From contig JAKALM010000010.1 in assembly GCA_021824145.1 (NCBI GenBank), positions 104,013 to 144,012 on the forward strand: a DNA stretch of 40,000 nucleotides. The letters are read 5' to 3'. Origin of the DNA: Bacteroidota bacterium. Its GTDB lineage: Bacteria; Bacteroidota; Ignavibacteria; Ignavibacteriales; Ignavibacteriaceae. The position numbers and the translations under genes were made by a program. Positions 19,203 to 33,494 of the stretch are shown here, piece after piece. Numbering within the stretch: position 1 is the first letter of the stretch; each line of letters begins with the position of its first letter. Below the pieces are notes generated by a model. It had not been told where the DNA came from and did no database searches. It saw only the letters and a list, made by a program, of their open reading frames with translations.

Positions 19203-20126
19203 CTATTCCTCAATTCCAAGTCTATCAAGCATACTTTTATAAGCAAAATGATATTGCTCTACTTCTGGTTCTTTAGAATTAACTTCACGATAAAGCTTTA
19301 AAGCTTTATCATAGATTTTATGCTGTTCATAAAAATTAGCTAAAATAAATTTACAGGCAATCGTTTCTTCAAAATTATTTTCGGCTAGAATCTGTTGGAC
19401 AGAATCTTTTATCATTTTAGAATTTTCTTTTTGTTCAATATAGAACCAATATTCCCTTGAAATTGTATTCTTCTCTTTATTTAAGGCAACACTCCAATAA
19501 TAATGATTATCTTCTAATAAATTTAAATTAATTACATTTAATTTTATTAATGTATCACTAGTTTCAGTCTCATAAATTAAACGATCGAATTTATCTAATA
19601 AGCTAAAATAATACATTGCATTCTCGCCGTACTTGTACCAGGAAAAAATAATTGTTGTGTCTATAATATTTGAGTTTCTCGGCATATATAATTTTATTTT
19701 ATCTTTTTCAATTCTTTCGCGCATTACTGCACCCTTTTCATCCATTACTTTACCTTCTGAATCTTTTTGACTTACCTCATTAAAAATGAAGTCCGCAAAT
19801 TTATATGTCATTGATGTTGAATTAGGCTGTTTTAAATTATTTGTTAAATCTTTTACTTTATAAATACCTATATTTTTTAGTTCAATTGTTTTACCTGATT
19901 TATATACAAGACCTAAATAAACATTTTTACCCAGTTTAATTATATCATAAGAATTCAATTTTTTTCCAAAGGAAAGTTTATTCCATTCATTTGATTTTAA
20001 ATCTTTCACAAATGCTTCTCCATAAACAGCAATTACCCTAAATAATTCTGATTGTGCAAACCCTTGAGTAATTGAAATCATAAAAAAAATAATAAAAAAT
20101 ATAATTTTAAATTTTCTATTTGTCAT
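19203..20126 (-). CDS. Exported FecR-like beta-sandwich protein with C-terminal TPR-like helices (operon gene 11)
   Basis: Signal peptide (FFIIFFMISITQGFA-QS). FRVIAVYGEAFVKDLKSNEWNKLSFGKKLNSYDIIKLGKNVYLGLVYKSGKTIELKN fits the FecR-domain pattern. C-terminal ILANFYEQHKIYDKALKLYREV is TPR-like. The ATG overlaps the CHASE2 stop as ATGA (20123-20126). SD gggagg lies 8 nt upstream. Confidence 0.55.
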   Translation of the reverse strand: MTNRKFKIIFFIIFFMISITQGFAQSELFRVIAVYGEAFVKDLKSNEWNKLSFGKKLNSYDIIKLGKNVYLGLVYKSGKTIELKNIGIYKVKDLTNNLKQPNSTSMTYKFADFIFNEVSQKDSEGKVMDEKGAVMRERIEKDKIKLYMPRNSNIIDTTIIFSWYKYGENAMYYFSLLDKFDRLIYETETSDTLIKLNVINLNLLEDNHYYWSVALNKEKNTISREYWFYIEQKENSKMIKDSVQQILAENNFEETIACKFILANFYEQHKIYDKALKLYREVNSKEPEVEQYHFAYKSMLDRLGIEE

Positions 20127-21331
20127 AACAAAACCTCCCTTTTTTGGGGTTTTAATTTTTTTATTAATTCATTATATGTATTAATTGAATTAGGGACTAA
20201 AATTAGTGAAAGTATTATTATTGTCGTATCGAATTGATAATTAAATACATTAAAGATGAAGATAGATAGATATAATATAAACAAAATTTCAATTATCGTT
20301 ATTATTGAAGCAATCTCATCGTACCAATTACTACTTATTTTAGATACCCAAGAAAGAAATAAAATGTTCAATAGACATATTGTCATTGAAAGAATGATAT
20401 TTGTTATATAAGGCATTGAATTAATAAAATTACTACTTAATATCATCGAAATGATATTGGCGTGAATAATGACACCATACATGTCGGGAAAAGTTTTGCC
20501 GGCATATCTTTGATTCATTGGAGTAAAAAATTTATCATTAATAAATAAAGAGTCATTAAAATTAATCCCTAAAAATCCTACTAAAACAATTTTATTTTCG
20601 ATCATACTTTTATCAATTGAAGAATCCAACTGATCAATATCGATTCTCATATAATTATTATAGTAAACATTCCTTTCATAATTTATTCTTTCCTCAGTAT
20701 TATTACGTTTTAAAAAATCATTATATTTACCAACATCAAAAAGCTTTATACATTGAACAGCAAAAGCATTTATAGTATCACTCATAATAACATATCTAGG
20801 CATAAAGCTTCTGACGGTCATAAATCCTTTGCTTTCATCTGTTATCAAATTAGCATAACCTTGAGTTGCATTTCTTAAAAAGACTTTATTTGAAGTTTTA
20901 ATAGAATCATACATATCTGATGTATTGTTTTTTTTTATTAGTGCATTTGCCAAAACAATATTTTTCCCATTATTTAAACTCTTAACTAAATAATTATCGT
21001 TCTTAGATCCATCAAAATTTTCAAAAAAAATATCAATCCCAATAACTTTTGGATTAAATTTTTCCAAAATATTTAATCTTTTTGAAATTTCATTTCTCGA
21101 TAAAAATCCGATATTAACAATTACGATATTTGTATCCAATGGAATATCATCATGATTACGAAGTTTAGAAAAAACTATGTCACTGAATTCAAAATCACTA
21201 AATGCTTTTGATAATGGATTAAGGAAATCAAAATCTATTGGAATGATTGACATTCCAAATATGAATAAAAAAATGGATATTGTAATTATTAGTTTATGAA
21301 TAAAACTCATTAACTTAAAGTTAAATTCCAA
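20123..21331 (-). CDS. Stand-alone CHASE2 domain membrane protein, no output domain (operon gene 10)
   Basis: N-terminal TM, then CHASE2 landmarks: IVIVNIGFLSRNEI...PKVIGIDIFFE; GYANLITDESKGFMTVRSF; NKIVLVGFLG...FFTP...MYGVIIHANIISMIL. Three C-terminal TM helices and a stop ~15 aa later. Start is TTG 21331 (11-nt overlap with CHAT) or ATG 21310 (10-nt spacer). Confidence 0.78.
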   Translation of the reverse strand: MEFNFKLMSFIHKLIITISIFLFIFGMSIIPIDFDFLNPLSKAFSDFEFSDIVFSKLRNHDDIPLDTNIVIVNIGFLSRNEISKRLNILEKFNPKVIGIDIFFENFDGSKNDNYLVKSLNNGKNIVLANALIKKNNTSDMYDSIKTSNKVFLRNATQGYANLITDESKGFMTVRSFMPRYVIMSDTINAFAVQCIKLFDVGKYNDFLKRNNTEERINYERNVYYNNYMRIDIDQLDSSIDKSMIENKIVLVGFLGINFNDSLFINDKFFTPMNQRYAGKTFPDMYGVIIHANIISMILSSNFINSMPYITNIILSMTICLLNILFLSWVSKISSNWYDEIASIITIIEILFILYLSIFIFNVFNYQFDTTIIILSLILVPNSINTYNELIKKLKPQKREVLL

Positions 21332-23861
21332 CTATAATAAAACTACCCCAATCATATGGATTTGGGAACTTGGATTTAATTTCTAATTGAGCACTTTTAA
21401 ATGCTTCAAATTTATCATTGTTTACTATCCAATTTTTATAAAATTGAACCATAAGTTTTTGTGTTATTTTATCATCAACTTTCCAAAGACTCATTATAAT
21501 TGTTTTAGCACCAGCAATTTGAAATGCTCTCTGTAATCCGTACACACCTTCTCCATTGACAATTTTGCCTTTTGCGGTTTCACACGCTGATAGTACAACT
21601 ATTTCTGTACTATCTAAACAAAGATTAGTTGCTTCTAAAGCAGTTAATATGCCGTCATCAATATCAAGATTATTTTTACTAAAAAGATTTCTATTTGCTC
21701 CTGCAAAATAAAGTACTGAATTCAGTAATGGGTAATTCTCTCTATAAAATTCATTATTAAGGTTTTCTTTTATATTAGAAAAGCCACCATGAGTTGCAAT
21801 GTGTAAAATGAAAGGATTTTTAATTGATTTTAAAGCTTCTTCTATCGCATTTTCTTTAATAAATTTATCAACTTGCCAATTATTATCTTTTAATATTTTT
21901 TCAATTTCAGTAATCTCAATTTCACTTCCTTTTAATTCTTTTAATCCATTATTATTACTAAATATTTGATTTGAATCTTTATTATCTAACTGTCTCATAT
22001 AGTATTTATTTGCCAGTTCAATATTTTTAGCTTTAGATAAATTATAGTTTGGATTTCCGAATAAACAAGCATATTTTGTTTTATGGTTCTTAACTTCATT
22101 TCTATTTATGATTTCATTTGTATTGGATACAAGTATAATATTATACTTATCAATTAGAAATCTGTTTTCATTATCTCTTAATGTGTTCAAATTTATTTTA
22201 TTATAGACTCCGTCTAATGATAAGTAAATTTTTTTCATGCCTATCAAATTTTCGTCAATTTTCTCCCAAAATTGATCGTATGATAATTGATCATCAAATG
22301 AATCTGTAATTGATTTTATATAATTAGAGTATATAACATTCTCTAGAGAATATCCATTTTTATTTATTACAATCTTTGGATATTCTTTAGTATCCTTATT
22401 TACAATTAGTGCAGCATAAAAAATAGTATCGGTATTCAAATATTGGATACGAATTATTTCTATAGCTGCTTCAGATGGTTTTAATTTAAGTTGAATATCT
22501 TTCCAATTAGTTTTTGGATTTCTCAATTCATAATAAGATTTGCCAGCTTGGGCACTAAGCTTATGTTCCATTGTACCAATTAAAGCGTCTAATGAATCCA
22601 GTTGATTTAGATATTCAATATTTATGTATTCGGAACTAATTGAGATATTAGAATATTCTTGCTTAAGTTTCTGGATTTTAGCATATAAATTAATTAGAGA
22701 GGAATCATTTGTACCTCTAATTCTATTCTTTTCTTTTTGAATTGAGTTCAATAATAATCCTTTAGTAGCAATTTGCTCATCATACATTTCACATAAGATC
22801 TTTGGGTTTGAATAATGTCTTGATATTGCAAAAAAATCAAATTCATTTAAATACTTTTTTAACATCGTCCAAAATTTTTCTCTTTCGTATTCATTTAAAA
22901 CTGGGAAATTTCTATCAATTTGAAAAGACAGACTTTTACAAAGTTCAATGAAATATTTTTCTGCTTTATCCATATTTCCAATTTCGAAATAAAACAAACT
23001 TAAGTTATTGAGCATTTGAATATATTTAGGATGCTTCGTCCCAAAAATCTTTGATGTAAAATTTAGAGTCTCGACATAAAGTGATTCAGCTTTAATATAG
23101 TTATGCTCTTTCTTATATATATAACCTAGATTATTTATAATGTCCAGGAAATAATTCGGGTATTGATTTATGGAAGATATTAATTCAAGAGCTTTATTAT
23201 AGTTATCAATTGCTCTATCAAATTGATCAATCTTCAAACACTCCATAGCATTATTACAAAAATAATTTATTCTATTTCGAGTATCAGAGTGTTGATCCAA
23301 TTCAACCATTTGCAGTAGTGAATCAGCTTTTGAAATTTTGCCGATCGTTCGATATATAAGCGAAAGAATATTGATAGATTTAATATAATCTGAACTTTTT
23401 ATATCCTCATTTTTTTGGTGTAGATTAATTGCATTTATACTAAAATTTTCTGCTTTCTCATATTGTCCTAATTTTAAATATAAGCTAGCTAAATTTTCAC
23501 ATGAAGTAGCTAAATATTCCCAATAGTTTGGATATTTTTCTTTTCTGATCGAATACGCTTGTAATAAAAATTTCTCAGCTTCATCATATTTCCCAAGTTC
23601 TAGATTAAATTGACCAATATAGCTAAGAATTATAGTATAATTTATTCCTTGATCATCTTTTAAGTCCTCTACTAATATTTTAGCTTGCTCCATCGAAAGT
23701 ATTGCTTGATTTAAATTGCCTTTGCTATGTTCTTCAATAGAATTTAAGTATAAATCTTTCCAATTCTGTGCAAAAAGATTATTGGTAAGGAATGCAAAAA
23801 TTATAAATAAGTGAATAATAATTACTTTTATACTTCTATACTTAGTAATATATCTTGACAA
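21321..23861 (-). CDS. Exported TPR-CHAT caspase-like protease (operon gene 9)
   Basis: N-terminal basic + hydrophobic segment (KYRSIKVIIIHLFIIFAFLTNNLFA-QN). About 270 aa of TPR repeats (e.g. GKYDEAEKFLLQAYSI, GQYEKAENFSINAINL, HNYIKAESLYVETLNF, GNMDKAEKYFIEL). C-terminal CHAT: LHIATHGG (His691, nt 21789-21791), VVLSACETAKG (Cys760, nt 21582-21584), terminal YDWGSFIIVG. TTG start. Confidence 0.85.
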   Translation of the reverse strand: MSRYITKYRSIKVIIIHLFIIFAFLTNNLFAQNWKDLYLNSIEEHSKGNLNQAILSMEQAKILVEDLKDDQGINYTIILSYIGQFNLELGKYDEAEKFLLQAYSIRKEKYPNYWEYLATSCENLASLYLKLGQYEKAENFSINAINLHQKNEDIKSSDYIKSINILSLIYRTIGKISKADSLLQMVELDQHSDTRNRINYFCNNAMECLKIDQFDRAIDNYNKALELISSINQYPNYFLDIINNLGYIYKKEHNYIKAESLYVETLNFTSKIFGTKHPKYIQMLNNLSLFYFEIGNMDKAEKYFIELCKSLSFQIDRNFPVLNEYEREKFWTMLKKYLNEFDFFAISRHYSNPKILCEMYDEQIATKGLLLNSIQKEKNRIRGTNDSSLINLYAKIQKLKQEYSNISISSEYINIEYLNQLDSLDALIGTMEHKLSAQAGKSYYELRNPKTNWKDIQLKLKPSEAAIEIIRIQYLNTDTIFYAALIVNKDTKEYPKIVINKNGYSLENVIYSNYIKSITDSFDDQLSYDQFWEKIDENLIGMKKIYLSLDGVYNKINLNTLRDNENRFLIDKYNIILVSNTNEIINRNEVKNHKTKYACLFGNPNYNLSKAKNIELANKYYMRQLDNKDSNQIFSNNNGLKELKGSEIEITEIEKILKDNNWQVDKFIKENAIEEALKSIKNPFILHIATHGGFSNIKENLNNEFYRENYPLLNSVLYFAGANRNLFSKNNLDIDDGILTALEATNLCLDSTEIVVLSACETAKGKIVNGEGVYGLQRAFQIAGAKTIIMSLWKVDDKITQKLMVQFYKNWIVNNDKFEAFKSAQLEIKSKFPNPYDWGSFIIVGI

Positions 23862-23904
23862 AATATTTATTTTTGAATTATTAAAATTTTATAGTTTAAT
23901 TTTG

Positions 23905-25248
23905 TTAAAAGAAAAATGAAATTCCGGCACCAACTGAAAATCCAGTAGTTTTTAAATCAATATTATCATCATTTTTTAGCAGTGGAACAAAATGGTATCC
24001 CCCCTCTCCATATATTCCAAAGCTTCCTAATTTGAAGGTTAAGGATCCAAGAAAATCAACATCTATACCACGGTATGCTTGATTAACAATATTATTTAAA
24101 TTATTATCTTGAAATTCAATGGATGTATACATATAATTAATTCCAAAGATTATTCCTGGATACATAAAATTAAGTATAGAAAATTTCTGTTGTATTCCAC
24201 ACCCTAATTGAAAGAAAAATAATTTACTATGTATTGTTTGATTTGAAGTTAAATATATATTCTCATTAACTTCACTCGTTAATGATAGTCTTCCATTTAT
24301 AAAAAACCGTGTATTAGCTTTAGCAAAATTGATTTGTAAACCAAACACTAAAGGAGTTAATGTGCGTGTGTTAAAAAATTTTTTTAGTGTATCTGAATTA
24401 AATGTAAAATTCTGGACTGTAAAGATTAACCAGTCATTAGATCTATATTTATCAGTTTCGTTTTCAAGTTCAAGTTCTTCTTTATCCCTGATAACTTTCT
24501 CGGCTCTTTCACTTCTTAATTCAGCTAATTTAATCCTAAATTTTTCAGCTTTATCATTATTTCTTTTAGTTCTTAAATAGTAATTACGATATGTCATTTC
24601 ATTAAAGTCAACTTGATCATTTACCAGTTTAAATTCACAATTAGATGAAGTTGAAAATACTTTATTAACTGTTACTTCACCAAGAACTTCATCTTTGACA
24701 GTAGAAATCAACTCTAATACATCGTTTTTAATTGCAGAACGATCTGCACCATAATTGATTGAAATTGTTTCTTTATCAATAAAAGAATTTATTTTATAAA
24801 TTGTGGGTACAATATTCTTTATATATTGGGCAATATATTCAGAAATCAGCTCATTATTCGACTCTGAAAGGTAATTTTGTGTAAGTGTAGAAACATCATT
24901 TGTTTGTAAATTTATAATATCAATCCTTATATCAAACAAAGTAGTAAAATTTTTTGATTGACTTATGTAACCTTTAATTGCATAACTAGCCGGAGTAAAA
25001 TTTACTTCTATAGTTTTTTTAAAATAATTCCTTATATCCTGAACCTTTAATTCATCTTGTGCAATTGAAAAATCTCTAGAAGGGAGAGAGAACGATTTGC
25101 TAAGATCTTCTTTTAGTTGAGATTCTATTTTTTTTGCTATTTGTTTTGTTCCATTTCCCTCTTCTGAATTAAAGGGATATACCACAATTTGTCCAAATAA
25201 AGTTGAACTAAATAACAATAATAAAATGGATAGAAATATTTTTTTCAT
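23905..25248 (-). CDS. Exported protein: TolB-N/FlgO/CsgG-like N-domain + C-terminal small beta-barrel (operon gene 8)
   Basis: I prefer ATG 25248 (MKKIFLSILLLLFSSTLFG-Q, SD aaggaaa upstream) over the track start 25272. N-domain IVVYPFNSEEGNG..IAKKIESQLKEDLSKSF..SRDFSIAQDELKVQ fits the periplasmic scaffold fold seen in LpoB/CsgG/FlgO. A charged coiled coil follows. The last ~170 aa alternate hydrophobic/polar residues and end in GAGISFFF, an OMP-type terminal Phe. Confidence 0.55.
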   Translation of the reverse strand: MKKIFLSILLLLFSSTLFGQIVVYPFNSEEGNGTKQIAKKIESQLKEDLSKSFSLPSRDFSIAQDELKVQDIRNYFKKTIEVNFTPASYAIKGYISQSKNFTTLFDIRIDIINLQTNDVSTLTQNYLSESNNELISEYIAQYIKNIVPTIYKINSFIDKETISINYGADRSAIKNDVLELISTVKDEVLGEVTVNKVFSTSSNCEFKLVNDQVDFNEMTYRNYYLRTKRNNDKAEKFRIKLAELRSERAEKVIRDKEELELENETDKYRSNDWLIFTVQNFTFNSDTLKKFFNTRTLTPLVFGLQINFAKANTRFFINGRLSLTSEVNENIYLTSNQTIHSKLFFFQLGCGIQQKFSILNFMYPGIIFGINYMYTSIEFQDNNLNNIVNQAYRGIDVDFLGSLTFKLGSFGIYGEGGYHFVPLLKNDDNIDLKTTGFSVGAGISFFF

Positions 25249-25258
25249 AAAAATTTCC

Positions 25259-26371
25259 TTAATTAATCTCAAAATTGATTAGTTTGCCTGAAGTGCTTTT
25301 AAGGTTCAATCTTCTAAAATTTGTTTTCCCGCTTAAAGCATCGAATATAGCATCTACAACCTCATCAGGTCGGGGACTTTTATAAGTAATTTCAAACCTA
25401 TAGAAATCTTCCTGTTTACTCATTCTAATATCTCCGGTAAATCCTTCATGTGAGGTTAAAGCATTTTTAAATTCTCTGGCTATTAAGTAGTCCGTTATTC
25501 CAAAGATTCTAATTTCGTAACTTGATCCTCTTGCAGCCATTCTATTAAAGTTTAACAGAATTTGTTCCACTATTTTTTCTGCTGACTTAATTGATGCTTC
25601 TTTTATAGCAGTAATATTAGCTTCGTCTTGATTTGTAATATTACCAACTAAACCGCTTGATTCATTTGCTGTACCTATTCCAGTAGCATTTTCTGTATCA
25701 AATGCTTCAAGATTAATATTTGCAGAAGAATAATAGGCTCCCGTATTTAAATTTTTACCCTTCATATCCAAAGTTATATTTACTGTTATATAATAAGGGG
25801 CATCTGCTTTAATTGCTATATCTCTCATATCTTGACTTCCAGATAATGATGACATCTCTTGCATTATATTACTTACGGCATCCTGAGAAATATATGTAAA
25901 TCCCAGCCTGCCTAAATATTCATTGATTACATTCACTGATAAATCTGTTAGCTTTTTATTAGAATTTTCATTTGAGTAGTATGAAGAAATTACCAAAATT
26001 TTAGGCCTATTAACTCTATCTAACAAATTATCAATTGCACTAATATCTTTTTCTAAATCACTTCGAGATATGTCAGCTTTAATAGTCACTTCCCATTTTT
26101 TTGTATCATCATCAAATTCCTTATTTGTAACAATTTCATTTTTTAAATATGCATCTGGTTTATTAGTTACTTTCCCTTTAATTACCTCCATTTGTTGGGG
26201 TCTTTCTGTGAATAAATCCTCAACTCCCTGTATAACAGCTTTTCTTCTAGCATCTTCCAGAGCATCTCTTTCTGTTTTTCCATATCCAGTAGATTTTTCT
26301 TTTACTGATGTTTGAGAATAGACTATAGAAGGAATAATTATAAAAAACAAAATAAAAATTACTTTATTCAT
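25259..26371 (-). CDS. Exported three-domain protein, LPP20/FlgT-like (operon gene 7)
   Basis: Signal peptide (IIIPSIVYS-QT). N-domain STGYGKTERDALEDARRKAVIQGVEDLF is LPP20/FlgT-N-like. The middle RPKILVISSYYSN...LTDLSVNVINEYLGRLGFTYISQDAVSNIMQE is TolB-N-like. The C-terminus has a small alpha/beta domain. Size (370 aa) and three-part layout resemble Vibrio FlgT. This is inference only. Confidence 0.45.
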   Translation of the reverse strand: MNKVIFILFFIIIPSIVYSQTSVKEKSTGYGKTERDALEDARRKAVIQGVEDLFTERPQQMEVIKGKVTNKPDAYLKNEIVTNKEFDDDTKKWEVTIKADISRSDLEKDISAIDNLLDRVNRPKILVISSYYSNENSNKKLTDLSVNVINEYLGRLGFTYISQDAVSNIMQEMSSLSGSQDMRDIAIKADAPYYITVNITLDMKGKNLNTGAYYSSANINLEAFDTENATGIGTANESSGLVGNITNQDEANITAIKEASIKSAEKIVEQILLNFNRMAARGSSYEIRIFGITDYLIAREFKNALTSHEGFTGDIRMSKQEDFYRFEITYKSPRPDEVVDAIFDALSGKTNFRRLNLKSTSGKLINFEIN

Positions 26372-26403
26372 TTGTTCCTCTTTGAATTAATTTTATCAAT
26401 ATT

Positions 26404-27441
26404 TTATTTACTTCTAATCAAATTTTTCACAGATGCACCTAAAATTTTTTTTGAATCCTTTGAAAAATAATCATTGACATAAACGCCACTACCAAAAGTA
26501 CCTATATATAACTTCCCATTAGGAGAGAGAAACAAAGAGTATATCATTCGACCAAATTCATCACCGCCAATTTTAACCCAATTCCTTCCATTATCTTTAG
26601 AATAATAAACTCCAAATTGATAAGTGCTTGCAAAAAGATTTCCATCATTATCACATACTAAACCGCTAATATATGGATTAGGAATTCCAAATCTTTTGTT
26701 ATTGCTAATGTTAGTCCACTTATTTTTAGTTGAATCAAATAAATATACTCCACCTCCATGCGTAGCCGCATATAACAAACCTTTTTCACTTTTCGTAATT
26801 ATCCTAATATTCCCATTTTGTAATCCATTACTAATTTCTTCCCAATTTTTGCCAGAATCTGTAGATCGAAAGATTCCCGATACAGTACCTGCATAGAAAG
26901 TATTATATTTATCTATATATAAATAATTAATGCAAATATTTTTAAGACCATTATTAATTGTTGATATTGAATCATTATGATTAAGTTCATAAATACCATC
27001 ATTAGTACCAAAAACAACGTTATTATCTTTTGTAAAATCAATCGAATAAATCATCTTATCTTTTGGTTTTTCAGTTAATACTTCCCATTTTTTTTTATCA
27101 TTAGGCTTTGATGGTGTTACAGTTGAATCATTGCCATATCCAGATTTAAGAAATAATTTATAAACATTACCAGCACATCCAGCATAAAGATTATTAGCGC
27201 TATCTATTTTTAAACTATATACATCATTAATAATTTTATTATCATCAATTCTATGCCATGTTGAGTCACCTTCTGAGAAACACCAGATTCCGGAATCAGA
27301 AGTTCCAATAAATAAAGTATCTGATACTTCTGCTAATGAATATATACTTCCTCCAAATGGCCTGACTAATTGCTTCCAAATACTTTGGGCAAAAGTTAAA
27401 CTAGTACAAAAAAATAATATGGATAAGAAACGAAATTTCAT
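26404..27441 (-). CDS. Exported BNR/Asp-box beta-propeller protein (operon gene 6)
   Basis: Signal peptide (LFFCTSLTFA-QS). Asp-box motifs STDSGKNWEEI and SKDNGRNWVKI plus degenerate SEGDSTWHRI and DSTKNKWTNI. Recurrent blade strands (LYAGCAGNVYKL, FYAGTVSGIFRS, LLYAATHGGGVYLF, LYIGTFGSGVYV). Confidence 0.7.
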   Translation of the reverse strand: MKFRFLSILFFCTSLTFAQSIWKQLVRPFGGSIYSLAEVSDTLFIGTSDSGIWCFSEGDSTWHRIDDNKIINDVYSLKIDSANNLYAGCAGNVYKLFLKSGYGNDSTVTPSKPNDKKKWEVLTEKPKDKMIYSIDFTKDNNVVFGTNDGIYELNHNDSISTINNGLKNICINYLYIDKYNTFYAGTVSGIFRSTDSGKNWEEISNGLQNGNIRIITKSEKGLLYAATHGGGVYLFDSTKNKWTNISNNKRFGIPNPYISGLVCDNDGNLFASTYQFGVYYSKDNGRNWVKIGGDEFGRMIYSLFLSPNGKLYIGTFGSGVYVNDYFSKDSKKILGASVKNLIRSK

Positions 27442-27480
27442 TTTTCTCCTTTAATACATAATCTATTACTTAAATAATAA

Positions 27481-27888
27481 TTAATTGTTATTTAATGAAT
27501 TCTTCCTAAAAGAATCTTCAATAAGTTTTAATTGTCTTACCTTATTTCGTATATCGATAATTTTTTCCTTTGATATCTCGACATAAATTATAACTTCATA
27601 TTGTTTTAATATTTCATTAAAACCTTTTTTAATTGTTTTTTTTGAAACAATAAATTCGTCAGGGTCAGAACCAATTTTATTAATTAAACTATCAGGTAGT
27701 TCACCTTTTAAAATTCCATAATCCAATAATGCGTATGTTATTCCCTTTAATTTCGCTTTTTGTTTAGCTTCAAATTCAGTAATTCCAAAACTCTTAACTT
27801 CTTTATAAATATTTTGACCAAACAATTGAATATTATTACAAAGGAAGGTATAGAATAATATTAGAAAAAAAAATTTTATAAATTTCAT
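27481..27888 (-). CDS. Small exported protein, LPP20/FlgP-like helix motif (operon gene 5)
   Basis: Signal peptide. KSFGITEFEAKQKAKLKGITYALLDYG resembles the G-x-G/A...A...A...A motif of LPP20-type proteins and the N-domain of gene 7. Weak call. Confidence 0.4.
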   Translation of the reverse strand: MKFIKFFFLILFYTFLCNNIQLFGQNIYKEVKSFGITEFEAKQKAKLKGITYALLDYGILKGELPDSLINKIGSDPDEFIVSKKTIKKGFNEILKQYEVIIYVEISKEKIIDIRNKVRQLKLIEDSFRKNSLNNN

Positions 27889-27907
27889 TTTTTATTTTAT
27901 GTAACTT

Positions 27908-29143
27908 TTATATTGAAGGAGGTTCATTTAATTTTATTCGTAGATTTATAAAAGCCTTTAATAAACCAAAACCTCCAGGCAGTTTTGAAAAACTAAACGA
28001 AGGTCCAAAAGCAAAATCCTTAGCAAAACTTTCAAATAAATTTGAGAACAATAAATCACAACTTAATTGAGGCTGTCGAATATTATCCATATCTTTTATC
28101 ATATAGTCAAATCTGAAATCAAACTTTGTTTGTATTTTGTAACCCAATGACATTTCATAGAACCGCATTCCGAAATGCCATTCATGCTCGTAATCTGCTA
28201 AATATATTTTGCCAAAAGGAGACGCTAATACAGATATTGGATATCTTATTTCAAAATTTATATAGTGCCCAGTTAAAAATTTAGGTTCGAAAACTGTACC
28301 ATCAGAGCTTATAACTCTTGTTTTATTAAGTATTTCATCTTTAGCTGATTTACTAATTTCATTAATAACTTGCTGATATTGGAACCTAATTATGTCAGAA
28401 AGAGGGAAAGAATAACTAGCTTGAAAACCAAGCGTTGAATAAACATTGTTAAAATTATTTTTAGGATAGAAATCGCCAACATCCCCAAAACTATTAAATG
28501 CACCAATTGCACCACCTAAAATATGAAAATTAGCTTCATAGAAATTTGTTTCTAATGGTCCGCTATAAGGAGAACCAAACCCCAAGGAGAGTCCAATGCC
28601 TAAATTTCTATCAATTGGTAAACCAAGTCTTTCGCCACCAAAAAGTGTAAAATATTCATTGATAAAACTTCCAAATGGTTCATATTTATATTTTGGTTGG
28701 TTCCACTTTATTTTTTGATTATTGCTTAAAACAATCTTTCCTACAACAGAAGTCAATATATAATGCCAAGGTATTTCTGACATATCAATAATTTGATTAT
28801 CTCTAAGATTAATTATTTCATTCACCCAATTAGATATTGAGCTATCCTTCTTTATTTCAGCAAAACTAATACTATTACCCCAGGGTATAACAGTAATAGT
28901 AGATGCAGAATCCATTGTATTTCCTGAAGAATTTCTAACTATTTGAACAATAACATGATTTGATGATAGTGATGGAACCTGATCATATGTTACGGCTAGT
29001 TTTTTTTGAATTTGCATTGATAATGTGGGATCTATAATTTCAAATTTATCAGGTACTTGAGAGAAAGTAAAAGAGTTATAATAAATTAATATAAATACGA
29101 TTATTGCTAATATTCTGTATAATTGTTTCATTGTTCTCTCCAA
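27908..29143 (-). CDS. Exported hypothetical protein with Gly/aromatic-rich beta-barrel-like C-terminal half (operon gene 4)
   Basis: Signal peptide (ILAIIVFILIYYNSFTFS-QV), SD ggagag. The C-terminal half is rich in alternating aromatic/Gly segments (GIGLSLGFGSPYSGP, NFHILGGAIGAFNSFG, YSTLGFQASYSF, FDFRFDYMI). No family recognised. Confidence 0.45.
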   Translation of the reverse strand: MERTMKQLYRILAIIVFILIYYNSFTFSQVPDKFEIIDPTLSMQIQKKLAVTYDQVPSLSSNHVIVQIVRNSSGNTMDSASTITVIPWGNSISFAEIKKDSSISNWVNEIINLRDNQIIDMSEIPWHYILTSVVGKIVLSNNQKIKWNQPKYKYEPFGSFINEYFTLFGGERLGLPIDRNLGIGLSLGFGSPYSGPLETNFYEANFHILGGAIGAFNSFGDVGDFYPKNNFNNVYSTLGFQASYSFPLSDIIRFQYQQVINEISKSAKDEILNKTRVISSDGTVFEPKFLTGHYINFEIRYPISVLASPFGKIYLADYEHEWHFGMRFYEMSLGYKIQTKFDFRFDYMIKDMDNIRQPQLSCDLLFSNLFESFAKDFAFGPSFSFSKLPGGFGLLKAFINLRIKLNEPPSI

Positions 29144-29145
29144 TT

Positions 29146-30165
29146 TTAATTACCGTTAATGTATATGGATTTCGTAATTTCTCTAGTTTTATGAGAAATT
29201 TTATCTGTAACTTTTAATTTTATATTAATTCGATACCCGTCATTATCTTCAGATCCTTGGCTATCACAAATATCTATGAAATTTGAATATTCTTTATCAC
29301 TAACTTTATGAGTCCACTTTATTGAATAAATTTTTCCTATTTTTAATTTATTTTCTACAATATCTTCTTCTTTGTAAAAAAGCCAATTATTTTTTGCCCA
29401 TCCAGTTGGATTAACTACAAAAGCATCAAACTTAAGATCTTCTGGAAAATCATATCTAACCGCAAGAGTAAATAAATTTTGATCATTTAATTGATTAAAA
29501 CTTTTAGCTTTATTAAAATCATTGGAAAGAGAAAATTTTGGAATCTCTGGTTTTTCAAAGACCTCAATAGAATCAATTAATTTAAGTTGGTCACTGCCAG
29601 GGTCTTTGTATTTAATAAATATTTGGTGATTTTTAATGGAATGGGTCAAGTTAAGTTTTCCATCTTTTTCGTTTGCTCTTAAAGACAAAATAATTTTATC
29701 ATCTGCGATAAAAAATAAATCTTGATTGGTAGGATTTGAAACAATATTTACCGCTTGGTTATAAATTTTCTTAACAGGATTTGAAATAATCATGTTCTTA
29801 CTTAAAATCACAAAATCTTTTTTTAAAGGCACATGCGGATTATTATAAGGAATATTAACAGGAGGTTGTGCAGAATTGCTTTCTTCAGTTGAATAATTTC
29901 CAAAATTTGAACTATTCCCTTTTCTTAATTCTTCTTTAAGTTTAGCAATTTCATTTGTTAAAATTGCATTTATTTTTTTTTCATTCTCATAATTTTTTTT
30001 GTAATTATCCATAATAATTTTTGAAGCAACTTCGGGAACATTGGATTCGGCTACTTTTGAAAGAGTAAGTTCTGCACCTTTATATACCATAATAGTCAAA
30101 ATCACTATATACAATATTTGGTAAAGTACAAACTTATTGTCACTGCTAGCTGATCTAATTGACAT
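29146..30165 (-). CDS. Bitopic inner-membrane protein: TM anchor, coiled coil, Pro-rich linker, beta-rich periplasmic domain (operon gene 3)
   Basis: N-terminal FVLYQILYIVILTIMVY anchor, coiled coil (NEKKINAILTNEIAKLKEELRK), linker AQPPVNIPYNNPHVPL, then ~220 aa that are beta-rich. SD gaggt upstream. 2-nt gap to gene 4 and 9-nt gap from gene 2. Confidence 0.5.
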   Translation of the reverse strand: MSIRSASSDNKFVLYQILYIVILTIMVYKGAELTLSKVAESNVPEVASKIIMDNYKKNYENEKKINAILTNEIAKLKEELRKGNSSNFGNYSTEESNSAQPPVNIPYNNPHVPLKKDFVILSKNMIISNPVKKIYNQAVNIVSNPTNQDLFFIADDKIILSLRANEKDGKLNLTHSIKNHQIFIKYKDPGSDQLKLIDSIEVFEKPEIPKFSLSNDFNKAKSFNQLNDQNLFTLAVRYDFPEDLKFDAFVVNPTGWAKNNWLFYKEEDIVENKLKIGKIYSIKWTHKVSDKEYSNFIDICDSQGSEDNDGYRINIKLKVTDKISHKTREITKSIYINGN

Positions 30166-30174
30166 AATTTTACC

Positions 30175-31353
30175 TCAATCCTCTTGCTTAGTATCGTCAA
30201 AAACTTTAATTGGGGCTCTATTATTATTTTCTTCATTAGTATCCATATTCATTTCAGCTTGAGTTTTTTCCAAAATATTAAAAATTTGTTCCTCATTTTG
30301 ATCTAAAACTAATCCATTTTTAATTTTATTATTAATTTTTTGAATAATTCCATAAGCATTATGACATACTTCTTCTTTTTTGTCTTTTAAAACTTTATGT
30401 GCAGGTAATGGAACAATTACATTTTTATCTCTTTTAAAACGTTCGGTAATTCTGTCGACTTTTACATCTATCATTTCGAGAATTTTATTCCCGGTATGTA
30501 ATACCCTTAATCGTGTTTCTTCTTTTATTCTATGTTCATCAGCTATTAATTGATAATATTTAACTCTATATTCATCACCTAAACTGTCTATAACTAGAGA
30601 AAAGGTTTTAGATAGAATCAAAACCAAAATTGCCTTAATTTCAAATGGAATAGAAAAATTTATAAACATCATTGGTCCGACAATTACACTTAATAATAAA
30701 ATTGCCGCTCCTAATAGCGGAACACTGAACCCCATAACATCAATTATATTTAGATATGAATTTTCAACTTCTTCAAATGCATGACTATCAGGTAATTTTC
30801 CTTTTTCATAATCAGATCTCATGACATGATACCCATCGAATGCAACCAAAGTAAAAATGAAAAAGGCTACTAAAGGCATAAGGTTAAATACCCAATAATG
30901 ATGCACATTTTCTTCTCCAAATGGACGAGATTTGCTATATAATGTTTTTAATGCTTCTTTATTCTCAACACTCCAATTTTTATTAGCTTCTAGCAGAGCA
31001 ACCAATTCAGCTTTGTTTAATTTTCCTGATAACTCTAACTCAGGATAAACATTGTCATAAGGAAGTAATTTTAATTTTTCCTTTAATTCTGATATTTCTT
31101 CATTGCTTAATTCCGAAGTAGGATAAGTAAGTACATATGATTGATTTTCTGTCTGCAATGTTGAGTCTGGAGTCAAAGCAACACTTATTTTTTCTTTTGT
31201 AATTCTTTGGTTTAAATTATTGATTACATTATAACTTATTCCAAAAGAAATTAATACTAAAATAAAATTTATTAAAAGACTTTTATATGTAATTCTTAAG
31301 AAATCCTTTATATCGAATAGCAAATTTTGAAAAAAATTATTTTTATCCTTCAT
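30175..31353 (-). CDS. Polytopic (about 4 TM) inner-membrane protein with long coiled-coil cytoplasmic tail (operon gene 2)
   Basis: TM1 LLINFILVLISFGISYNVI, ~110-aa periplasmic loop, TM2 YWVFNLMPLVAFFIFTLVAF, TM3 SVPLLGAAILLLSVIVGPMMFI, TM4 PFEIKAILVLILSKTFSLVI, then a ~130-aa charged helical tail. P-L-L-G in TM3 and a Glu at the start of TM4 are faintly reminiscent of MotA/TolQ/ExbB channels. Unverified. Confidence 0.5.
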   Translation of the reverse strand: MKDKNNFFQNLLFDIKDFLRITYKSLLINFILVLISFGISYNVINNLNQRITKEKISVALTPDSTLQTENQSYVLTYPTSELSNEEISELKEKLKLLPYDNVYPELELSGKLNKAELVALLEANKNWSVENKEALKTLYSKSRPFGEENVHHYWVFNLMPLVAFFIFTLVAFDGYHVMRSDYEKGKLPDSHAFEEVENSYLNIIDVMGFSVPLLGAAILLLSVIVGPMMFINFSIPFEIKAILVLILSKTFSLVIDSLGDEYRVKYYQLIADEHRIKEETRLRVLHTGNKILEMIDVKVDRITERFKRDKNVIVPLPAHKVLKDKKEEVCHNAYGIIQKINNKIKNGLVLDQNEEQIFNILEKTQAEMNMDTNEENNNRAPIKVFDDTKQED

Positions 31354-31397
31354 ATCATCCTCATTTTAAATTTCTTTTCAACTATTTTTCCCTTTGC

Positions 31398-33494
31398 TTA
31401 TTTATTTGTTCCTTCTTTAGTGCCTATTGGTGTTTCAATAATTAGTTGGCAAGTCCTATTATAAAATCTTCCTTCAGGTGTTTCATTATCATATAAAGGG
31501 ACTGATTCACCATATCCTTCGCTTGATAGATCTTTAGTAACTGGTTTTAATAATCTGACGAATTCTTTTAATGCATTAGCTGCTCGAGATTGTGATAATT
31601 TCATATTAGAAATTTCAGTTCCAATACTATCAGTATATCCAATCATTTTTATGCTAGAATTATTAGAAATGTCATCTTTAACTTTAAATAATATATCTTG
31701 ATTCCTTTTATTTAGATAAGAACTATTAAAATCAAATAAAACTAGACTTAACTTTTCAACATATTTATCTGAAATCTTATCAAGTTTCTTTTGCTCAGAG
31801 GATAAATATTTAACTGGCATTTCAAAAAATTTTTTTTGGGTTTCGAGGCCTTTACTATCTTTTAAATGAATGACGAACTCAAATGGCGAATTGTTTACAC
31901 TTTTATTCTTAATTGATTCATTAATATTCCAAGGAATATAAGGCGGAGGATAACTTTTGCCAGCAGAACTGAACATTAACTGATTATTCTGTTTTACAAA
32001 TAATTCCCATGATGTTGGTGGAGAAGTGAATTTTAGATCTAAATGAATTTGTAAATTTCCAGGGTCAGATAATTTACTATTACTCAAAATATCTACAGAA
32101 TTGAATAAATTGGGATCATCAGAAACAATTTCTACTCTCCTGTTTTCTTCTTGCCCTTTAACATTATAAATATTTGAAGGCTTTGAAGGTAAATTTTGAG
32201 CTTTTATAGTTATTCGGTCAGGAGAAATATTCCAAACATTCACTAAATATTCTTTTATTACTTCAGCTCTATCTCTACTTAATTTTAAATTATTTTTTTC
32301 TGAACCTTCATTGTCATTGCACCCAATTAATTTGATTTTTATTCTATCATATTTTTGAAGCCTTTTTCCAATAATGTTAAGTATATTATAGTAAACACTT
32401 AATTGATTTGCATCAAGATTGTTTTCTTCAAATTTTGCAGTATTCTCTTTAGTAATAAGAGAATATTTATTAAGTATTACTGCAGAATTTTTTTCAAAAA
32501 AAACATAGTTTAGTAGCGGATAAAATTCTTTTGATTTAATTTCTTCTATCATTACATGATCAATATTTTTGTATACATTGTCTGCTAAACAAAAAATTCC
32601 AGATTCTGTAATTTCTGGAGGTAAAAATTCATTATAAGTGACTTCATATCCAGAAAAAATAATTTTATTAGCTATTCTATTAAAATAGTTAGCTAATTCT
32701 ACTGCATCTTTTGCTTTGAAATATTCACCATTAGACTTCTCAGCTAGCTCTTCTAAAATATTTCTTCTCGAAGTGATATTTTCTGATCTATTAAAATCAA
32801 CTGAATATATTTTCCCACTCTTATAGCTAGATAATACATCTTCAGTGGATGTTTCACTTGCATTATCTTCTCCATCAGAAAGTAAAATATAAAAAACATC
32901 TTTAGGGGCTAAATTTTTATCTGAATTAAATGCTACATAAATTTGATCTCTTAAATAAGTTCTATCAGTCAAATTATCATATTTATAATACTTTTTACAA
33001 AAATTAATTACTTCACTGTTATTTCCTGCAAATTTATTTAATTGGATGTTTAAAGGTTTTCCTTGGAAATAAAAATTACTTTTATCATTGTCATGACCGA
33101 AGAAAAGAACAGATATCTCTGCTGATTTTGATAAGCTACTAATTAATGTATCTAATATTTTTAATAATTCCTTACTATAATTATTCATTGAAGCAGAGTT
33201 GTCTAAGCATAATACTACTTTATATTTTGAACTTGTCTCTTCAGATAAAGGTACTACTTTAACTATTTCAGTTAAATTTGAACCAATTTTTAAATCAAAA
33301 TCATTTTTATTTAAATTTTCAATTGGCTGATTATCTTTATTTAATACTTTTATTTTAATTTTATTCGAAGAGATTGGTTCGGTTGATATTTTATAATTAT
33401 TTTTTTGATATCCCTTTAAGGAAATATTTACTTCCTGTGAGTAAGTTAAAATAGATATAAAAATAATTAAAACTAAAAAGAAAAAAACCTTCAT
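31398..33494 (-). CDS. Exported vWA domain protein with two OmpA-like peptidoglycan-binding domains (operon gene 1)
   Basis: Signal peptide (FISILTYS-QE). vWA MIDAS VVLCLDNSASM (D98/S100/S102, nt 33189-33203) and LLSDGEDN. OmpA-like 1: IKLIGCNDNEGSEKNNLKLSRDRAEVIKEYL...NRRVEIV (~nt 32124-32522). OmpA-like 2: IKMIGYTDSIGTEISNMKLSQSRAANALKEFV...GRFYNRTCQLIIE (~nt 31434-31748). Confidence 0.8.
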   Translation of the reverse strand: MKVFFFLVLIIFISILTYSQEVNISLKGYQKNNYKISTEPISSNKIKIKVLNKDNQPIENLNKNDFDLKIGSNLTEIVKVVPLSEETSSKYKVVLCLDNSASMNNYSKELLKILDTLISSLSKSAEISVLFFGHDNDKSNFYFQGKPLNIQLNKFAGNNSEVINFCKKYYKYDNLTDRTYLRDQIYVAFNSDKNLAPKDVFYILLSDGEDNASETSTEDVLSSYKSGKIYSVDFNRSENITSRRNILEELAEKSNGEYFKAKDAVELANYFNRIANKIIFSGYEVTYNEFLPPEITESGIFCLADNVYKNIDHVMIEEIKSKEFYPLLNYVFFEKNSAVILNKYSLITKENTAKFEENNLDANQLSVYYNILNIIGKRLQKYDRIKIKLIGCNDNEGSEKNNLKLSRDRAEVIKEYLVNVWNISPDRITIKAQNLPSKPSNIYNVKGQEENRRVEIVSDDPNLFNSVDILSNSKLSDPGNLQIHLDLKFTSPPTSWELFVKQNNQLMFSSAGKSYPPPYIPWNINESIKNKSVNNSPFEFVIHLKDSKGLETQKKFFEMPVKYLSSEQKKLDKISDKYVEKLSLVLFDFNSSYLNKRNQDILFKVKDDISNNSSIKMIGYTDSIGTEISNMKLSQSRAANALKEFVRLLKPVTKDLSSEGYGESVPLYDNETPEGRFYNRTCQLIIETPIGTKEGTNK

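Follow-up and report, generated by a model that had tools for sequence, protein, structure and literature searches.

Introduction

CHAT-domain proteases have been studied as cytoplasmic switches, among them separase, the Craspase and the activators of gasdermins. Here we analyse a window of 40,000 nucleotides (nt) from a Bacteroidota genome of the family Ignavibacteriaceae (GenBank assembly GCA_021824145.1, contig JAKALM010000010.1, positions 104,013 to 144,012 of the forward strand). The window encodes an 846-amino-acid (aa) CHAT protein with an array of tetratricopeptide repeats (TPRs) and a predicted signal peptide. Directly downstream lie genes for a membrane protein with a CHASE2 domain and for a secreted 307-aa protein, here called p307. 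A large, paralogue-rich set of CHAT proteins in Bacteroidota and Ignavibacteria carries leaders that would direct export, and no substrate is known for any of them. A defined envelope gene set is thus a place to look for periplasmic substrates and for the logic of their activation.

The initial annotation of this DNA took the characterised bacterial CHAT proteases to be cytoplasmic throughout, a premise that no longer holds. In Myxococcus xanthus, the transmembrane anti-sigma factor DdvA carries a periplasmic TPR-CHAT region of ~900 residues with an H862/C907 dyad, and its structure was determined by cryo-electron microscopy in 2024 (PDB 8rot; PMC11506125). DdvA is proposed to be latent and to be activated by a periplasmic protein signal, and signal-induced autoproteolysis in trans would provide the site-1 cut that precedes RseP; proteolysis was not demonstrated, the dyad is misaligned at rest and no trans substrate is known (PMC11506125). 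DdvA-like proteins have been reported solely within the Myxococcota and for a single species of Comamonas (PMC11506125).

The window protein resembles DdvA in its fold and as a TPR-CHAT protein with a His-Cys dyad and a predicted extracytoplasmic location. DdvA differs in that it is a dimer, has a zinc anti-sigma domain in the cytoplasm and a single transmembrane helix, and is paired with a cognate extracytoplasmic function (ECF) sigma gene. Its CHAT domain lacks three helices, whereas that of the window protein is full-length and is encoded beside CHASE2 and p307. The window protein does not look like a DdvA-type anti-sigma factor: it has only 12 residues before its hydrophobic core, and the window contains no sigma or anti-sigma partner.

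Csx29, a component of the type III-E Craspase, shares with the window protein the TPR plus CHAT architecture and a cysteine motif of the SAC/GAC-ET type. Csx29 works in the cytoplasm, where it is bound to Cas7-11 and switched on by RNA, whereas the window protein has a predicted signal peptide. Nor does its gene cluster resemble a type III-E Craspase locus, in which Csx29 is encoded with Cas7-11 (gRAMP) and Csx30/31, as it gave no matches to cas or defence-system models. Separase likewise consists of a helical-repeat region followed by a caspase-fold protease domain, but it is a eukaryotic, nuclear or cytoplasmic, much larger protein that is regulated by securin.

Caspase-fold cysteine proteases that act outside the cytoplasm are represented in Bacteroidota by the gingipains (C25) and the clostripain-like peptidases (C11). 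In this they would resemble the window protein, but they belong to other families, are secreted by the type IX secretion system (T9SS) or as lipoproteins, have no TPR array and are degradative or virulence enzymes, not likely regulated switches. Bacterial C14 metacaspases and orthocaspases with N-terminal signal peptides have also been described (PMC3501461, PMC2853523), and a 2012 survey of prokaryotic metacaspases reported many N-terminal ‘TM helices’ that are probably signal peptides (PMC3501461). Exported C14 caspases share a caspase fold and a predicted extracytoplasmic location with the window CHAT protein, and in loci recovered here they adjoin CHASE2 and p307; they belong to PF00656, however, and not to PF12770. 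A characterised soluble exported CHAT protein was not found in the literature searched.

CHASE2 proteins have been linked to partners outside the cytoplasm and to a caspase-like protease. A FecR-domain periplasmic protein pairs with a CHASE2 histidine kinase (COG4254; PMC5192318), and CHASE2 cyclases of S. meliloti respond to a protein signal that reaches them through NsrA, an outer-membrane barrel (PMC13001267). Like the window, these systems combine a CHASE2 protein with a secreted or outer-membrane partner and a protein signal. Their CHASE2 proteins have kinase or cyclase outputs, whereas the CHASE2 protein of the window has none. In Trichodesmium, a metacaspase is fused to CHASE2 (PMC3501461). 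That protease is predicted to be a cytoplasmic CHASE2 output, whereas in the window both the protease and the CHASE2 domain are predicted to lie on the periplasmic side. No direct ligand or mechanism for CHASE2 is defined in the literature searched.

A predicted exported TPR-CHAT protease

The TPR-CHAT gene occupies positions 21321..23861 of the window (window features are numbered from its first letter, and all those given here lie on the minus strand). Its identification draws on the open reading frame (ORF), which has a TTG start, on Pfam, on homologues and on an AlphaFold2 (AF2) model. The product contains a TPR array at residues ~46-310 (~265 aa; 22932..23726), matched by Pfam TPR_12 (E 1.6e-28), TPR_10 (E 1.5e-19) and other TPR families, in keeping with the ~270 aa of TPRs first noted. 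A CHAT (caspase-fold) domain follows at residues 528-845 (21327..22280; PF12770, E 2.5e-53). The PF12770 match scores 181.8 bits against a cut-off of 24 and is near full length, spanning positions 8-288 of the 289 in the profile.

The predicted catalytic residues are His691 (motif LHIATHGG, codon 21789..21791) and Cys760 (motif VVLSACETAKG, codon 21582..21584). The coordinates of the ORF and of both codons are exactly those of the initial annotation. His691 and Cys760, together with the flanking residues T690, G692 and A759, are invariant among 14 CHAT-domain sequences and among 38 full-length homologues at 24-62% identity; the alignment of the latter also served as the basis of the AF2 model. 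The claim that the dyad is retained is supported.

The AF2 model has a mean predicted local distance difference test (pLDDT) score of 84.5 and a predicted template modelling score of 0.82. The TPR region is modelled as helical hairpins and has kinesin-light-chain-type TPR matches in the PDB. The CHAT domain is modelled as an alpha/beta fold with strands ending at the dyad and with C-terminal helices beyond the Cys strand. His691 comes right after strand 685-689 and Cys760 right after strand 754-757, which are the positions expected of a caspase fold. The loops beside the dyad (699-703 and 767-772) are modelled at low confidence.

A Foldseek search of the PDB with this model returned Csx29 (8d9f_A, E 1.4e-12), human and yeast separase (E 1e-10 to 1e-7) and DdvA (8rot_A, E 1.1e-9), all with probability 1.00. 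Csx29 is the best whole-length structural match (TM-score 0.51 normalised to the target), at a sequence identity of ~12-15%. By sequence, the full-length protein matches TPR proteins only in the PDB. Conservation and modelling together strongly support a TPR-CHAT protein with an intact His691-Cys760 dyad and an architecture like those of Csx29, separase and DdvA.

The translation opens with MSRYITKYRSIKVIIIHLFIIFAFLTNNLFAQNW, and a signal peptide is predicted at residues 1-31 (23769..23861) from sequence, hydropathy and homologues, with a signal peptidase I (SPase I) cut at LFA|Q. The N-terminus reads MSRYITKYRSIK-VIIIHLFIIFAFL-TNNLFA|QNW, corresponding to a basic n-region, a 13-residue hydrophobic core and a polar c-region. 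The start is rich in K/R, and the cut site has Ala at -1, Leu at -3 and Gln at +1. A hydropathy scan finds a single hydrophobic segment, at residues 13-31 (2.21 over a 19-residue window). The leader contains no lipobox Cys and no Cys in its c-region. Pfam and NCBIfam detect no Por_Secre_tail or other T9SS sorting domain and no lipoprotein model, and the C-terminal end of the protein is the CHAT domain itself. These features predict a soluble periplasmic mature protein.

A database search found 137 homologues. The closest, P0002 (62% identity, from a Bacteroidetes metagenome-assembled genome), starts with MIKYLVFLSIISFSLLQKNIYAQEWKELYL, and its ...IYAQEWKELYL aligns to ...LFAQNWKDLYL of the window protein. 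The +1 Gln (Q32) is at least 90% conserved among the 38 full-length homologues, and nearly all complete homologues have a short leader that starts rich in K/R, continues with a hydrophobic core and ends in A/S/G-Q. In Bacteroidetes, a ‘Q-rule’ describes how SPase I exposes a Gln that is then cyclised to pyroglutamate (PMC10653852). The Q ending of the leader fits this rule, and the conservation of the +1 Gln argues that the leader is cleaved.

The leader pattern of complete homologues was seen in 120 database proteins, in 81 genome loci and in the top-scoring representatives from a library that had been clustered at 50% identity. By a crude and permissive heuristic, which also flags 52% of neighbouring ORFs, 101 of 118 and 96 of 113 full-length homologues (~85%) are signal-peptide-like. 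Given this background the heuristic was weighted little; the window leader was judged mainly by inspection, with most weight on its anatomy, the +1 Gln and the homologue alignment.

The initial annotation left the exact N-terminus in doubt, since the gene has a TTG start and no Shine-Dalgarno sequence. An in-frame TAA lies 10 codons 5' of the TTG, and no further ATG, GTG or TTG occurs between the TTG and codon 57. As the TTG is the sole canonical start 5' of the hydrophobic core, the hydrophobic segment is included in the protein. Met57 falls within the TPR array. Other ORFs in the window are also listed with TTG and GTG starts, and Shine-Dalgarno use is weak in Bacteroidota. Because the leader is conserved in homologues, including the one at 62% identity, the doubt is settled in favour of the long form, and a true start downstream of the hydrophobic segment is not borne out.

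The hydrophobic N-terminal segment ending in LFA-QN, first read as a signal peptide or anchor, is thus confirmed, and it strongly resembles a cleavable SPase I signal peptide in form. Taken together, the sequence evidence strongly supports a Sec-exported TPR-CHAT cysteine protease of caspase fold. The mature protein probably comprises residues 32-846 and begins with pyroglutamate. As a predicted soluble periplasmic TPR-CHAT protein, it would differ from the membrane-tethered DdvA and the cytoplasmic Csx29.

Two weaker matches, P0099 from Vacuolonema and P0108 from Nostoc, are TPR-CHAT proteins with signal-peptide-like leaders ending in ALAQ. These cyanobacterial leaders suggest that exported TPR-CHAT proteins extend beyond the FCB group.

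A CHASE2-p307 module beside exported cysteine proteases

The gene downstream of CHAT encodes a stand-alone CHASE2 membrane protein (20123..21331; PF05226, E 5.7e-22) with a first transmembrane segment, a periplasmic CHASE2 domain and C-terminal transmembrane helices. Its start is likely the ATG at 21310, 10 nt past the CHAT stop, because the database version of the protein has 395 aa. Three transmembrane segments are detected by hydropathy scan and a fourth, C-terminal helix was read from the sequence. The protein ends ~16 residues past the last transmembrane segment, without a cytoplasmic output domain. We identified 1372 homologues, and the 120 listed are ~374-430 aa long and contain CHASE2 only. 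With its transmembrane segments and PF05226 domain but no output domain, the window CHASE2 protein is a stand-alone protein and not a classical receptor.

Across 25 homologues, the periplasmic domain has invariant D39, D44, N66, R72, D93, D105, N154, R167, R202, E207, N210, K240, D259, D276 and N285, and H283 is at least 90% conserved. This unusually large set of polar residues may mark a catalytic site or one that binds a ligand or metal. The sequence of the domain matched no solved structure.

The p307 gene (19203..20126) overlaps the CHASE2 gene by 4 nt, and its product has no Pfam or NCBIfam assignment. A structure model made with five database sequences (pLDDT 76) comprises a signal peptide and an N-terminal beta domain, which is conserved, followed by a fibronectin type III (FN3)/immunoglobulin (Ig)-like domain and a tail of four TPR-like helices. 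Among the fold matches, the C-terminal domain of MtxA and FN3 pairs rank best. A profile search of the PDB gave weak TPR and FN3 matches only, with no FecR or PupR. The possibility that p307 is FecR-like (PF04773) was rejected, as neither Pfam (at E < 0.01) nor NCBIfam nor the fold search gave such a match.

We collected 83 CHASE2 loci (L082-L164), 80 from a metagenome scan and three from look-ups. A p307-like gene adjoins CHASE2 in 70 of them, directly downstream on the same strand in 66 and divergently in four. Seven of the 13 loci with no adjoining p307-like gene have no room for one on the contig. CHASE2 and p307 thus form a tight and widespread two-gene module.

This module recurs beside exported cysteine proteases of three families: CHAT, C14 and C1. 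CHAT adjoins CHASE2-p307 in the window and in L001, L022, L035 and L050, which were recovered from the CHAT side, and in L105, L117 and L153, which were recovered from the CHASE2 side. The three genes occur in three orders (all three in one direction; CHAT with a convergent p307-CHASE2 pair behind it; CHAT with a divergent pair behind it), and the trio is kept across ~30% sequence identity in distant relatives.

Peptidase_C14 caspases, secreted and carrying Ig-like or CsgG-like N-terminal domains, occur in 17 of the 83 CHASE2 loci. A secreted Peptidase_C1 (papain) with a DUF4384 domain is found at the second position after CHASE2 in 19 loci (L082, L084-L086, L090, L093 and 13 others). This C1 gene is often followed by genes for a 168-aa secreted protein and a C14 caspase with one of the same N-terminal domains. 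At least one of CHAT, C14 and C1 is present in 27 of the 83 loci, and in 12 of the 26 that have at least 5 kb on each side. As a control, the same hidden Markov models (HMMs) applied to 81 CHAT-centred loci found two C14 and no C1 genes.

Gene fusions also tie p307 to caspase-fold proteases. Right after CHASE2, three loci (L108:11278-13245, L129:11271-13217 and L119:2551-3597) encode fusions of a signal peptide, the p307 N-terminal domain and a C14 domain. The fusions match positions 8-149 of an HMM of the p307 N-terminal domain (E ~5e-29) and contain the C14 motifs FAGHGH and FDACFSG. Both complete fusions (L108 and L129) end in an outer-membrane beta-barrel. With the recurrences, they link the p307 N-terminal domain to caspase-fold proteases and place those proteases in the periplasm.

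The window trio belongs to a cluster of eleven genes that begins with an OmpA-VWA gene and ends with p307. In L099 (376-4583), CHASE2 and p307 are directly followed by an orthologue of this OmpA-VWA protein (E 7.5e-168), so that counterparts of the two genes that delimit the window cluster lie side by side there. The association of CHASE2-p307 with proteases appears to be new, as no description of it was found in the literature searched. A stand-alone CHASE2 protein with a secreted partner and exported cysteine proteases provides a testable lead on CHASE2.

A putative periplasmic protease that may work with the CHASE2 module

We favour, with moderate confidence, a reading in which the CHAT protein is a latent periplasmic protease that works with a CHASE2-based envelope module. 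Judging from Csx29, separase and DdvA, the enzyme would be latent and switched on through its TPR/helical part by a protein partner or ligand. The partner system would consist of the CHASE2 inner-membrane protein and secreted p307. Since it is fused elsewhere to a C14 caspase and an outer-membrane barrel, the p307 N-terminal domain is a candidate adaptor that may bridge CHASE2 and the protease. A periplasmic or envelope cue could then cause the protease to cut one or a few envelope proteins, with p307, CHASE2, OmpA-VWA and the other secreted cluster proteins as candidate substrates. Periplasmic substrates and a sensing role for the TPR array, both put forward in the initial annotation, are plausible, and the CHASE2 and p307 gene context gives this idea a concrete form. 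A sensing role would also fit the many paralogues, whose TPR arrays vary.

Several observations weigh against this reading. CHAT and CHASE2 are adjacent in a minority of loci (4 of 81 CHAT loci and 4 of 83 CHASE2 loci), and most CHAT relatives have other neighbours, such as a PD40-OmpA gene, which is next to CHAT in 17 of 81 loci. The CHAT-CHASE2 link may therefore be facultative or lineage-specific. Lacking an output domain, the CHASE2 protein offers no visible signalling route to the cytoplasm. No periplasmic CHAT domain, that of DdvA included, has been shown to be proteolytic (PMC11506125). The mature CHAT protein has several non-conserved cysteines, which is unusual for the periplasm of organisms with Dsb systems, and the signal-peptide heuristic has poor specificity. 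Finally, the CHAT-domain profile reaches Csx29 at an E of 0.23 only, with LSACET aligned to LGACET of Csx29, which holds its catalytic Cys (C627, 7x8a numbering). Towards its N-terminal end this alignment has probably slipped, as H585 of Csx29 falls on YFAG of the window protein and not on HIATHG, so that only the Cys column is usable.

Two alternatives concern the location of the protein. That it is cytoplasmic, through a start at Met57 or a wrong gene call, is extremely improbable. Its TTG start without a Shine-Dalgarno sequence would allow this, but TTG and GTG starts are listed for other window ORFs as well, Met57 would begin the protein inside the TPR array, and homologues down from the closest one keep the leader. 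The hydrophobic segment might instead act as an uncleaved signal anchor that tethers the TPR-CHAT protein to the inner membrane, facing the periplasm, like DdvA without its anti-sigma domain. AF2 draws residues 2-46 as one continuous helix, residues 13-31 score high in hydropathy, and DdvA is itself a membrane-tethered periplasmic TPR-CHAT protein (PMC11506125). The truly hydrophobic core, however, is just the 13 residues of VIIIHLFIIFAFL, followed by the polar TNN and then A|Q; the leaders of homologues are short, with A-Q, S-Q or G-Q at the end; and the conservation of Q32 is sensible only for a cleaved leader under the Q-rule (PMC10653852). We therefore consider an anchored form quite unlikely.

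Other alternatives accept export and differ in what the protein does. The CHAT domain could be mainly a non-catalytic or self-cleaving sensor or scaffold that clips only itself or a tether in the manner of DdvA, whose dyad is misaligned at rest and has no known trans substrate (PMC11506125); the low confidence of the dyad-adjacent loops in the model would be compatible with this. Such a role is very unlikely, as the dyad and its flanks are invariant over very many diverged paralogues and the CHAT domain is complete with its C-terminal helices, whereas that of DdvA is truncated. A more serious, though still doubtful, alternative is that the exported CHAT protein is active but independent of CHASE2-p307, with the adjacency being incidental or regulatory only. 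Its partners or substrates would then be other secreted cluster proteins or envelope proteins in general, which it might reach by way of OmpA-type proteins bound to peptidoglycan, as in the 1335-aa CHAT paralogues. The low frequency of adjacency speaks for this account, as do the commonest neighbour of related CHAT genes, a PD40-OmpA gene that precedes one for a secreted protein of 743 aa, and the OmpA-VWA protein at the start of the window cluster. Yet the trio survives three gene arrangements and divergence to ~30% identity, and CHASE2-p307 also attracts C14 and C1 proteases, even to the point of fusion with C14. The OmpA-VWA orthologue directly after CHASE2-p307 in L099 further indicates that the two partner sets are not independent.

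A latent protease coupled to the CHASE2 module could also be part of something broader. We raise as a tentative and rather unlikely proposal that CHASE2, p307 and an exported cysteine protease (CHAT, C14 or C1) form an undescribed extracytoplasmic proteolytic switch of the FCB group. A diversified TPR or adaptor domain would detect a periplasmic protein cue (phage entry, a competitor effector or envelope damage), and the caspase-fold protease would cut envelope targets, remodelling or sacrificing the cell. If true, this would be a periplasmic counterpart of cytoplasmic caspase-like immunity and the first functional handle on CHASE2.

Distribution of the CHAT family and its gene neighbourhoods

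A scan of one genome per species identified at least 590 loci with close CHAT-domain relatives. They are mostly found in Cytophagales (Cyclobacteriaceae, Roseivirgaceae, Ohtaekwangia and others), with some in Ignavibacteria and Kapaibacteriales, and several loci often come from one assembly. Among the Cytophagales, Splendidivirga, Shiella and Chryseosolibacter encode orthologues. A profile search of 1.84 billion cluster representatives recovered 126,520 CHAT proteins at E <= 1e-3 and 33,167 at E <= 1e-30; each of the top 150 matches scores above 408 bits. Homologues are named ‘CHAT domain-containing (tetratricopeptide repeat) protein’ in the database. Signal-peptide-bearing TPR-CHAT proteins are thus a large, annotated and unstudied family that is very common in Bacteroidota and Ignavibacteria.

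The CHAT gene alone is an ordinary member of this common family, and the precedents for signal peptides and for a periplasmic TPR-CHAT region weaken the novelty of a claim about the single gene. The initial annotation had suggested a survey of how many CHAT proteins carry signal peptides and of the neighbours they keep. Leaders occur on most full-length homologues by the permissive heuristic described above, and the neighbours fall into several partner sets that include CHASE2-p307 and PD40-OmpA. The family would therefore be broadly periplasmic in its predicted location, with CHASE2-p307 as the partner set present in the window.

The PD40-OmpA set belongs to CHAT paralogues of 1335 aa, which have a conserved operon of their own. 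In this operon, CHAT is followed by PD40-OmpA (~690 aa) and then by the 743-aa secreted protein (17 of the 81 loci, among them L006, L015, L017, L018, L021, L023, L042, L043, L054 and L068). The 743-aa protein has no Pfam match. Like the window cluster, this operon suggests an envelope role, although CHASE2 is not part of it. In L021 (6971-10978), two adjacent ORFs of 913 and 416 aa together make up a CHAT homologue, a split that may reflect a frameshift, a pseudogene or an assembly error.

A link between CHAT and ECF sigma factors in the style of DdvA or Csx29 was considered and rejected. Sigma-like genes occur in eight of the 81 CHAT loci at scattered distances, and none occurs in the window, where Pfam and other searches found no sigma-70 family domain in ORFs of at least 100 aa.

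The eleven-gene cluster

The window cluster (33494..19203) consists of eleven packed genes with spacings of -14 to +44 nt, of which CHAT is the ninth. Inspection of N-termini and hydropathy indicates that each of the 11 products carries a signal peptide or transmembrane segments. All signal peptides in the cluster, eight besides that of the CHAT protein, stop before a Gln (FAQ, FGQ, YSQ or FSQ), a display of the Q-rule.

The first gene (31398..33494) encodes the OmpA-VWA protein, which has a signal peptide and a peptidoglycan-binding OmpA domain (Pfam, E 2.5e-24); its VWA_3 match is weak (E 1.2e-4) and under the Pfam cut-off. Seven further genes (23905..31353) encode proteins of 455, 370, 345, 135, 411, 339 and 392 aa and, from ORF spacing and N-termini, are probably co-transcribed with CHAT. 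The 345-aa protein is a Reg_prop/BNR propeller by Pfam, and the other six have no family assignment in Pfam, NCBIfam or PADLOC. L001, the closest relative of the window locus, keeps the order propeller, 370 aa, ~450 aa, CHAT, CHASE2 and ~310 aa.

A known anti-phage system was considered for the cluster and rejected, as PADLOC gave no match for ten of its proteins; no cas genes or defence models were matched. A promoter scan was uninformative in this DNA of 29% GC, with promoter-like matches at the level of shuffled sequence, and no terminator-like site helped to delimit an operon.

The TTG start listed for the 455-aa ORF (23905-25272) is probably too far upstream, and an ATG at codon 9 gives the leader MKKIFLSILLLLFSSTLFG|Q. 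Its C-terminal ...GAGISFFF resembles the end of an outer-membrane barrel. A CsgG/FlgO-like N-terminal domain was also considered for this protein and rejected, since neither an HMM built from the CsgG-like N-terminal domains of the C14 proteases nor Pfam matched anything. The 370-aa protein (25259-26371) matched the L001 orthologue of the 135-aa protein (27481-27888) at E 8e-8, pointing to a domain shared by these two secreted proteins.

At 2806-8172, unrelated to the cluster, the window also encodes a sensor histidine kinase of 1788 aa, in which two transmembrane segments and at least seven PAS domains accompany a kinase core of the HisKA_2/HWE type.

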